Made by a program: the position numbers. A stretch of DNA of 64,000 bases from an uncultured candidate division Zixibacteria bacterium. Lineage in GTDB: Bacteria; Zixibacteria; MSB-5A5; UBA10806. Where the stretch lies: NCBI GenBank assembly GCA_963817915.1, contig CAWFQL010000009.1, positions 32,001 to 96,000 of the forward strand, in the 5' to 3' direction. This document shows, piece after piece, positions 45,001 to 48,000 of the stretch. The stretch's first letter is position 1. The number at the start of each line of letters is the position of its first letter.

Positions 45001-48000
45001 TACTGCTATGCCATTATGCGATTTGATAATTGAATCGACGAGTGCCTTGCCGGCGTCATCGAGATTGGCAGTCGGTTCGTCCAATATCAGGACTTCAGGA
45101 TTTCTTGATAATGCCAGGCAATATTTGAGCCTTTGTTTCATCCCCGATGAATACGAGCCAACCAGATCGTCGCCGCGCCCCGATAAGCCGACAAAATCCA
45201 ATTTATCTTTGATCTCTTTTCTGGTCAGCGGAAATCCAGCCACGTGACTGAAAAAACCAAGATTTTCGATTGCGCTTAATTCATCATATAAAACGAGGTC
45301 CGGCGAAACCAATCCGATATAATTCCTGATTTCGATATCTTTGATGATTTTATCATCATAGGATAATTCAATCTTGCCTTTGGTAGGGCGAATTAATCTG
45401 CAAATAATCCTGATCAATGTCGATTTGCCGGAGCCGTTGGGCCCGGTGACTACTAATCGCTTGCCGGATTCAACATTCGCGGAAACATCAGCGAAAATTT
45501 TCCTGCCCGGATATGACTTAGATATTCCATCGATATTTAAACGTATTTTTTTCACCTCGGTCATAAAAAGGGATAACACCGAAAATTACAAGCGGAAAAT
45601 ACTAATATTGAATTTATGGGAGTAAAAATACATCTGGGCGGCAGCTGTCCACACCAGCCTCTTCGGAAAGTCATTGCGAGTCCGGCAGCTGCCGGCGAAG
45701 CAATCTGAAGGATGCTACCCGCGGATTGCTTCGTCGCTCGGCAAAAGCCGAACTCCTCGCAATGACGGATAATTTTATTTTGGGGGCAGGGAGACGACTG
45801 CCGACCAATAGAGCTTAAAAAAAAGAATAATTGTAGGTTAGTAGGTCCGAACCCCTGCAGTTCGGACTCTTGAATTGCCTATCAATCAAAAAGGCGGAAC
45901 CACGGGGGTTCCGCCCTACGGATTTCATAAGAAAAATGGCGGCCTCGTAAAAAGGAGCCCGCCATAAAATCATTATTTATTTGTAATTATTGAATCAAAT
46001 GTCCAATCCGTCCCCAACGAACTCTGTCGGGCAGATGAACAATATTATATGCGATATTTACTGGATACGAAAATGGATTGCTTGCCGATACCTGCGGCGC
46101 ATTCTCGTCCGGTGCCCATGACCAATGGATGATCATGGCCTTGCCCATAACCAATTTACGATCCAAAAATCCCCAGAATCTCGAGTCTGCCGAATTATCC
46201 CTGTTATCTCCCATCATGAATAGATATCCCTTAGGGACTTCGGTTTCGGGCATATTATCTCGAATCCCCATGCCCCATTGGCCATCATTGAAATGAGGGT
46301 ATACATGCGTCGAATCCATGAATTGACCGTGCGTCGGCAATGGCACTGGCTTACCATCGACAAAAACCTGCTTGTTGACAATCTTGACTTTTTGTCCGCC
46401 GACCGCAATACATCGTTTGATATAATTCTGTCTTTGATCCAATGGATATTTGAAAATTATTATATCGCCCGGCTTGGGCTCAGCGAGCGCTGGCAGTTTG
46501 ATATCTGTGAGGAATGGGATCGGCAGTCTCATTCCATAAACAAATTTATTCGCCAAAAGGAAATCGCCAACCAATAGTGTTTGTTCCATCGACCCTGATG
46601 GGATTTTATACGCCTCCACCACTGATGCTTTTATCATCAGAGCAAGTATCAGGGCAATTCCAAGTGATTGAACAAAATCCCACAATGATTCATACCATGT
46701 GCGATTTTCAATTTTCTTGGCAGGTTTTTTTGTCTTATCCTTCGAAAACAGCTTCATTTACGCTCCTTTTAGTCTATTTTACCCTTAAATACTGTAAAGG
46801 TTGCAGGAATCTATTATCATCTTACCATAAATGCAACCCCATTTTGGCTTTGGCTATTATTACCCCTTGCCAGTAGCGGGGAAATTTCTTATTATCGTGA
46901 CTACTTTATGGAGGATAGATGATTAATACGAGTGATTTTCGAAAAGGAATGAAGTTGGCGATTGACGGCGATCTTTATATAATAGTCGACTTTCAACATG
47001 CACGAACAGCACAGAGACGGGCCAATGTCTGGACCCGACTTAAAAACATGAAAACCGGTTCTGTTATCGAACGGACATATTCCGCAGGCGAAAACTTTGA
47101 AGTACCTGATTTTAACGAACGCGGAATGTCGTATCTTTATACCGACGGCGAAGTTTATAATTTTATGGATTCGAAAACCTTCGAGCAGGTTTCATTGAAT
47201 GATGAACAGATCGCCGATTATAAATGGTACTTACAGGAAAATGTCGAATACAAGGTGCTGTTTTTCGAGGGAATTCCAATATCTATTAATATGCCGTCGG
47301 CTGTGACATTGAAGGTTGTTGAATCGGAGCCAGGTGTTAAGGGCGATTCGGTTTCTAATCTCACAAAGAATGCGACATTGGAAACGGGTTTGGTTGTTAA
47401 GGTGCCGTTATTTATCAAGGTTGGCGATTCGGTCAAGGTTGATACTACCGAAGGCAAATATCTTGAAAGAGCCTGATTAACATTTCTCATAAATTCTGCT
47501 ATGCAATCTGATCTATTGAGGGGGGAACCGGATGGCATTATTGGTGTCGACGAGGCCGGTAAGGGTGACTATTTCGGGCCGCTTGTTATCGCTTCATGTT
47601 ATTCTAATAAACTAATCGAGCAGAAATTTGAAGCGATCGGCCTGAAAGAAAGCAAAGCTGTCACCGACAAACGAGCCTTTTTATTAGAATCAGAAATAAA
47701 AAAAATCGCACCATTCGAGGTTATAGCTATCGGCCCCGAAAAATACAATGAGCTATACGATAAAATCAAAAATCTGAATAAGCTTTTAGCCTGGGGCCAT
47801 GCCCGCGCAATCGAGAATCTACTGGAAAAAACAAATCCCATAGAAGTTATCGCGGATCAATTTGGTGATGAGCGGCTTATCCAAAATGCCTTGATGAAAA
47901 AGGGGAGAAGCGTTAATCTAAATCAGCAAACCAAGGCGGAGCGATTCCCCGCGGTGGCGGCGGCATCGATTCTGGCAAGGGCGGAATTTCTTAGGAGGCT

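Follow-up and report, generated by a model that had tools for sequence, protein, structure and literature searches.

A sole elongation factor P with a glutamine-tipped RTAQRRA loop in Zixibacteria and its alternation with arginine-tipped loops

The efp gene and its product

The window, a 64,000-nucleotide stretch of a Zixibacteria contig, contained a gene for elongation factor P (EF-P) preceded by a ribosome-binding-site-like sequence and followed by two genes on the same strand:

46910..46914, + strand: Shine-Dalgarno-like GGAGG, with the ATG 4 nt downstream (sequence reading)
46919..47476, + strand: efp, elongation factor P, 185 aa (Pfam, TIGR00038, single EFP_N match, AF2 model)
47003..47023, + strand: beta3-beta4 loop R29-T30-A31-Q32-R33-R34-A35, equivalent to E. 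coli 31–37 (sequence, gapless alignment, model)
47012..47014, + strand: Gln32 codon, at the site where other EF-Ps have the modified Lys34 or Arg32 (sequence, alignment)
47015..47017, + strand: Arg33 codon, proposed stand-in for the basic tip (Arg in Gln-tipped, Gly in nearly all Arg-tipped relatives)
47501..48157, + strand: RNase HIII-type gene adjoining efp (TIGR00716 over cut-off)
48114..48797, + strand: eIF2B/IF-2B-family gene, second conserved neighbour of efp (PF01008)

The efp product contained all three Pfam domains of EF-P (EFP_N, EFP and Elong-fact-P_C) and scored 229.5 with the TIGR00038 model (cut-off 185.8), indicating that it was an EF-P equivalog. Identity as EfpL was rejected, since the protein fell under both NCBIfam cut-offs for EfpL/YeiP (139.8 against 216, and 126.6 against 264). 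An AF2 model made from an alignment of 113 Gln-loop sequences had a pLDDT of 89.9, and its top Foldseek matches were EF-P structures; prediction from the single sequence reached a pLDDT of only 34. One EFP_N match was found in this genome (G000, 93.9% complete), bearing out the initial annotation of a sole EF-P, and neither the EFP_N profile nor tblastn found a lysine-type paralogue there. Five promoter-like sites lay near efp, no excess over the 5.9 expected by chance.

The loop and its tip

In the translated sequence the loop stood in the context DFQHARTAQRRANVWTRL. This region was aligned to EF-Ps of the PDB without a gap and kept the seven-residue loop length of EF-P; thus T30, Q32, R33 and R34 correspond to E. 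coli P32, K34, G35 and Q36. The E. coli reference loop, read from the sequence of locus L327, was KPGKGQA, the form that the initial annotation had given as usual, and its reading of a RTAQRRA loop with glutamine at the tip agreed with both the ORF and the gapless alignment to E. coli Lys34. In EF-P and eIF5A the working residue is taken to be a basic one at the loop tip, often modified; in the window protein this place was occupied by Gln32. Strands at residues 18–27 and 36–43 of the AF2 model delimited the loop to residues 28–35, with residue 32 near the apex, where confidence was lower (pLDDT 77 for the block 31–40).

Among 53 Gln-tipped proteins of the phylum, the loop showed higher conservation than the remaining sequence (pairwise identity 97% against 65%). 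All 108 clusters that a loop-region search returned had RTAQRRA, though the search itself was biased toward this loop. A sequencing error or alignment shift was rejected on the basis of these clusters, the gapless alignment and the loop identity.

Known EF-P modification systems

No EarP was detected in any of 285 phylum genomes, while two positive-control earP plasmids (W01 and W02) both matched, confirming on a larger set an absence first reported from 101 genomes with no positive control. In G000 the best EpmA score (TIGR00462) was 43 against a cut-off of 287, which two controls exceeded, and tblastn gave no match for EpmB or EarP; the EpmA and EpmB negatives cover G000 only. The statement that no known EF-P modifier was present thus held for EarP across the phylum and for EpmA and EpmB in G000, but had missed a DHS-family gene (see below).

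The window protein differed from four described types. T30 and Q32 replaced the P32 and K34 of the lysine-EpmAB type, and neither epmA nor epmB turned up in G000; the Gln tip and the absence of earP (0/285) set it apart from the arginine-EarP type; the tip was Gln where the lysine-YmfI type has Lys; and its loop had seven residues rather than the nine, Arg33 among them, of EfpL/YeiP, in addition to scores under the cut-offs.

Genes beside efp

The RNase HIII-type gene adjoined efp in 94 Gln-loop and 34 Arg-loop loci (loci partly redundant), and the eIF2B/IF-2B-family gene was near efp in 58 and 18, respectively. Both genes (47501–48797) stay directly downstream of efp across the phylum. No Gln-specific neighbour was found, and the genomes outside the phylum had no common neighbour. 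A modifier gene beside efp was therefore rejected: both conserved neighbours accompany either loop, and the outside genomes share none. The RNase HIII-type product was short (218 aa), and its match to the model was confined to the catalytic part. Further downstream (49066–52278) were genes for an AmmeMemoRadiSam radical SAM enzyme and then a membrane protein of 579 aa for which neither Pfam nor NCBIfam gave a match.

Distribution within the phylum

TIGR00038 matches were found in 271 of the 285 phylum genomes, exactly one in 256 and two or three in 15; one EF-P per genome, as first noted for 46 of 46, therefore holds for the 256 but not for the 15. At least 78 of the 271 EF-P-bearing genomes, from 13 of 20 families, had the Gln loop. 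The loop pattern matched 71 genomes, 66 of which coincided with listed or fetched efp genes; the matches in G214 and G218 were assumed to be efp, three located elsewhere were dropped, and ten further Gln loops were read from fetched DNA. The 190 “other” genomes are those without the Gln-loop pattern, and 42 of them were read.

We read 95 EF-Ps, one per genome, selected on score and manually with coverage of the families in mind, and hence not a random sample. The tip was Gln in 53 (13 families) and Arg in 42 (9 families). These proteins upheld the initial annotation in its view that Gln and Arg tips alternate in Zixibacteria, with at least seven tip changes (see below), and corrected it on two points: the Gln loop occurred in 13 families instead of four, and the Arg loops were diverse, KMGRGKA making up only 4 of 42 and not the majority. 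Its claim that Pro-Gly-Lys EF-Ps are missing stood apart from one exception, the single extra copy that was read. This was a second, KPGKGQA-type EF-P of G173, excluded from the 95 and possibly a transfer or misbinning. It lay on a short 3.1 kb contig (L076, G173:C212:1-3132), and no EpmA or EpmB gene adjoined it.

Distribution outside the phylum

A scan of 185,579 species genomes yielded 58 loci with the Gln loop. Among them, many with “Ignavibacteria” titles had the efp-rnhC order (16 loci) and probably belong to the same phylum as the window. Ten, titled Deltaproteobacteria, Proteobacteria, Omnitrophota, Desantisbacteria or “bacterium”, had other efp neighbours; an eleventh outside locus, on a 2.6 kb contig, nested among the phylum rows. 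The EF-P was the sole EFP_N match in all ten outside RTAQRRA genomes tested. A second pattern search detected RTAQRRA in Patescibacteria-titled and KIAQRRA in WOR-3-titled proteins of about 40% identity. The Gln loop is thus present in Zixibacteria, as first noted, but that range was too narrow, as Patescibacteria-, Omnitrophota-, Desantisbacteria- and deltaproteobacteria-titled records also carry it. It is a real and strongly conserved EF-P variant of several phyla.

Further Gln loops were RKSQSAA (mostly in Elusimicrobia-titled loci, L300–L317), KVAQRQA, KIAQARA and KMQQRAP, and Gln loops without Arg33 exist (RKSQSAA, KIAQARA and RTAQSRA). In two Patescibacteria-titled loci efp came directly after rpsR (gene names from sequence). 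An EF-P homologue on a Paraburkholderia hospita plasmid (L319:2501-3025) had a lengthened, Gly- and Gln-rich loop.

A coupled switch at positions 32 and 33

In the 95 phylum proteins, residues 32–33 were QR in 53, RG in 41 and RR in one. A Patescibacteria-named clade, 33–46% identical to the window EF-P, gave QR in 33, RG in 33, RS in two and RR in one of 69 clusters; the query of this search was a Patescibacteria-titled EF-P with the Gln loop, so that the share of Gln may be inflated, while the pairing was unforced. Arg33 accompanied the Gln tip in 53/53 and 33/33 proteins of the two sets, and Gly33 the Arg tip in 41/42 and 33/36. Gln-Gly was found in none of the 164 proteins, and every one of them had arginine at 32 or 33, suggesting that Arg33 is the source of charge when the tip is Gln. 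Three basic residues were present in 31 of 33 Gln loops of the Patescibacteria-named clade, and two in 26 of its 36 Arg loops.

Trees built without the loop columns required at least seven changes of tip state in the phylum and at least six in the Patescibacteria-named clade. A single Arg clade was rejected by AU test in the phylum (p 0.0035), as was a single Gln clade in the Patescibacteria-named set (p 0.0004); the phylum tree leaves the direction of the switch unfixed. From these residue patterns, Gln-Arg and Arg-Gly loops are probably two interchangeable solutions joined via an Arg-Arg step, and their coupled switch suggests a mechanism in which the arginine is shifted.

A DHS-like gene and polyamines

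The DHS-family gene of G000 lies outside the window:

G000 C12:47416-48507: putative SpeY-type DHS homologue (PF01916 match)

Its product was under every NCBIfam equivalog cut-off and kept the lysine of the W-x-K motif, which we take to be catalytic; this lysine was kept in 40 of 40 DHS-like proteins. The arginine decarboxylase and agmatinase partners were on another contig in G000, and many DHS-like genes elsewhere lie between genes for these two enzymes, an arrangement that is the SpeY homospermidine route as set out in the sections consulted of PMC13625781.

Of the 78 Gln-loop phylum genomes, 74 had a DHS-family gene; of the 190 others, 27 did. The four Gln-loop genomes with no match were G273 (100% complete), G233 (86%), G218 (76%) and G279 (59%). 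None of 160 genomes in the Arg families f7–f10 had the gene, and 142 of the 160 had spermidine synthase. It was also missing from all four members of an Arg genus (g3) while the other ten genomes of the same family have it. The gene is nevertheless retained by a number of Arg lineages (f3, 20/21; f18, 5/5; f12, 3/6; and G241). Outside the phylum, in genomes of unstated completeness, a DHS-like gene occurred in 9/10 RTAQRRA, 17/18 RKSQSAA, 0/1 KVAQRQA and 2/3 Asn-tipped genomes, against a background of 26/65 (40%) in Lys-tipped controls; these controls were unmatched, a class-wide search around one outside genome having returned that genome alone. The four genomes of genus g3 (G252–G255), two of them single-contig assemblies, gave no match for a DHS-like gene, spermidine synthase or 23S domain V.

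The phylum genomes are related, so these counts are non-independent, and the one to four well-supported independent pairs leave phylogeny-aware tests with too little power; the association thus stands as a real pattern, with dependence unproven. The DHS-like proteins formed several deep clades in which both loop types were mixed, making the homologue unlikely as a dedicated EF-P enzyme; the gene has the look of a metabolic one. The link more likely runs via the polyamine product than via the enzyme.

G000 also had an operon (C3:155663-158562) of pyruvoyl arginine decarboxylase, methyltransferase, agmatinase and methyltransferase genes, and a methyltransferase follows agmatinase in families f15 and f17 and in G263 as well; such operons possibly encode a pathway for N-methylated polyamines. 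The operon methyltransferase was rejected as a modifier of the glutamine, as it had a 71% match in the Arg genome G253 and no close match in five Gln genomes. Eight transglutaminase-core genes, which may include a modifier, were present in G000, several with signal-peptide-like N-termini (by eye). No candidate enzyme for attaching a polyamine to Gln32 was found.

Polyproline, other factors and rRNA

Among 2030 crudely called ORFs of at least 200 aa in G000, PPP runs numbered 137, against 81 ± 8 in 50 shuffles, and the PPP of ValRS was retained, so a loss of polyproline was rejected. Three tRNA-Pro D-arms looked canonical when compared with the D-arm consensus. An ABCF-size protein with two ABC cassettes (C16:230342-232216) and a PrmC-like gene were found by motif search. 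A yebC-like gene (C11:2180-2960) changed frame after about 80 codons, either an assembly error or a pseudogene.

At the loop start of 23S helix 81 (L328–L358), 17 of 18 Gln genomes had U at a base presumably equivalent to E. coli U2265, and 10 of 11 Arg genomes had C or A there (permutation p ~0.04); the difference was weaker in a second set, with U in 5/8 Gln and 2/9 Arg genomes. This base may be an rRNA counterpart to the loop switch and is regarded as a lead only. None of the core peptidyl-transferase-centre motifs checked separated Gln from Arg genomes.

Discussion

The likeliest reading of the sequence evidence, and a somewhat probable one, is that the window protein is an unmodified EF-P whose working arginine has moved by one residue. 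Such a factor would bind the E site and read tRNA-Pro like other EF-Ps; Arg33, aided by Arg29 and Arg34, would give the charge that steadies the P-site tRNA's CCA end, and Gln32 may hold the turn or hydrogen-bond to RNA. A working EF-P that needs no tip modification would be the result. The coupled switch in two clades, the lack of a Gln-specific neighbour, the status as sole factor and the undepleted polyproline were counted in its favour; Patescibacteria, moreover, have a reduced metabolism. Arg-type EF-Ps without EarP, e.g. that of Deinococcus, function unmodified in E. coli according to the sections consulted of PMC12931083; EF-Ps of distant origin frequently do not work in that host. Against this, the invariance of Gln32 also fits an enzyme-recognition site, the AF2 model is less certain around residue 32 and shows no ribosome contact, other Gln loops do without Arg33, and Gln-loop genomes nearly always carry a DHS-like gene; the same part of PMC12931083 also states that genomes alone cannot separate unmodified EF-Ps from those with an unknown modification.

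Alternatively, the Gln32 amide may carry an aminobutyl or homospermidine group, a hypusine-like arm supplied by the SpeY-type pathway and attached by a transglutaminase-like enzyme or the DHS homologue, lineages that lost the system moving to Arg-Gly. The skewed gene counts inside the phylum (including 0/160 and 0/4 in the Arg groups) and outside it, together with the invariant W-x-K lysine, are consistent with this, but we think it doubtful: the independent pairs are few, Arg lineages keep the gene and a complete Gln genome gave no match, the DHS-like proteins fall in mixed clades and often accompany arginine decarboxylase and agmatinase, and no attaching enzyme emerged. An amide nitrogen is also a poor nucleophile for DHS chemistry. 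As far as the consulted sections go, the literature points both ways. According to PMC6544042 a DHS homologue might modify EF-P in bacteria, though this is unproven, and in its table the 16 Asn-tip rows examined (of ~26) were all DHS-positive, but Brachyspira (three rows) and Thermodesulfovibrio had a Gln tip with no DHS; in PMC13625781 all SpeY homologues tested produced a homospermidine precursor, and EF-P was not mentioned in the text consulted. It is less likely still that EF-P is unmodified and that free homospermidine beside the Gln loop supplies the charge, the loop being kept solely by lineages that synthesise or import it. The same co-occurrence would be expected, and families f7–f10 indeed carry spermidine synthase instead; DHS xenologues that can replace one another are in keeping with a requirement for the product and not for the enzyme. 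This explanation is weakened by the 40% background in Lys-tipped controls and the lack of support from independent contrasts, and it does not alone explain the strict coupling of QR and RG.

It seems improbable that the protein is weak as an EF-P, or specialised for other motifs, and that an ABCF factor carries out most of the rescue at polyproline. The ABCF-size protein of G000 would suit this, and the repeated switches to Arg-Gly could mean that the Gln state is inferior; it is opposed by the conservation of a loop common to proteins about 40% identical, by the undepleted polyproline and by the frameshift in yebC. Least credible, and very improbable, is N5-methylation of Gln32 as in the release-factor GGQ glutamine, or a loop matched to altered 23S rRNA. 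The PrmC-like gene and the helix-81 base would be compatible with these, but the operon methyltransferase is not distributed with the Gln loop, and the helix-81 base was labile in the second set, with none of the core peptidyl-transferase-centre motifs checked following the groups.

The arginine-shift reading places the protein near the unmodified Arg-type EF-Ps (Deinococcus radiodurans, Nitrosomonas communis and Geoalkalibacter; consulted sections of PMC12931083), which likewise have neither EarP nor Pro at position -2; the sister state with an Arg tip is, in both clades, of this broad kind. The window protein differs in its Gln tip and in the Arg, not Gly, that follows. EfpL/YeiP also uses an unmodified arginine (consulted sections of PMC11611912), but the window protein has no two-residue loop extension, is under both cut-offs and is the sole factor, not a paralogue. 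With lysine-type EF-Ps (EpmAB, YmfI and unmodified PGKGP) it shares three domains, the seven-residue loop and the G-x-K/R-G-D motif of domain III, but its loop lacks Lys, Pro and Gly, and G000 yielded neither EpmA nor EpmB. Asn-tipped EF-Ps with a DHS-like gene (Chlorobi, Chloroflexi, Acidobacteria and some Planctomycetes) are alike in the amide tip, the lack of a known modifier and the co-occurring DHS homologue; they differ in keeping Pro32 and in the loop, TPGNWRG in three loci here.

In the sections consulted, Gln-tipped EF-Ps made up 0.6% of 1166 in PMC6544042 and 0.3% in PMC2821294, where they were tallied and not studied. They share Gln at 34, no Pro32 and no EpmA or EarP with the window protein; five of the ~7 Gln rows in PMC6544042 had A32 (Brachyspira, three rows), M32 (Thermodesulfovibrio) or K32 (Elusimicrobium), and none T32. 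Within the literature searched, which included few subscription papers, nothing was found for “elongation factor P” with “Zixibacteria” or for EF-P with transglutaminase and polyamine in bacteria, no study of a Gln-tipped EF-P was located, and no EF-P paper among those checked mentions Patescibacteria. Gln tips had thus already been counted, and these searches found no published description of the RTAQRRA loop, its coupled switch with Arg-Gly or its link with SpeY.

That a sole EF-P whose tip is neutral has become fixed in two or more distant clades, and has switched back and forth with Arg-Gly, amounts to a natural experiment in what the loop has to provide. The outcome would be either a shifted-arginine design for an unmodified EF-P or a new polyamine-on-amide modification. 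The latter, if true, would add a fourth chemistry to the EF-P modifications of bacteria, the first to act on an amide side chain; Asn-tipped EF-Ps might share it, and it would give a function to the long-noted bacterial DHS–EF-P link.

Among the Arg-tipped relatives, families f8 and f10 (e.g. L227 and L085) had loops with a terminal proline (KMGRGRP), an ending that may recall the stiffening proline of unmodified PGKGP EF-Ps.
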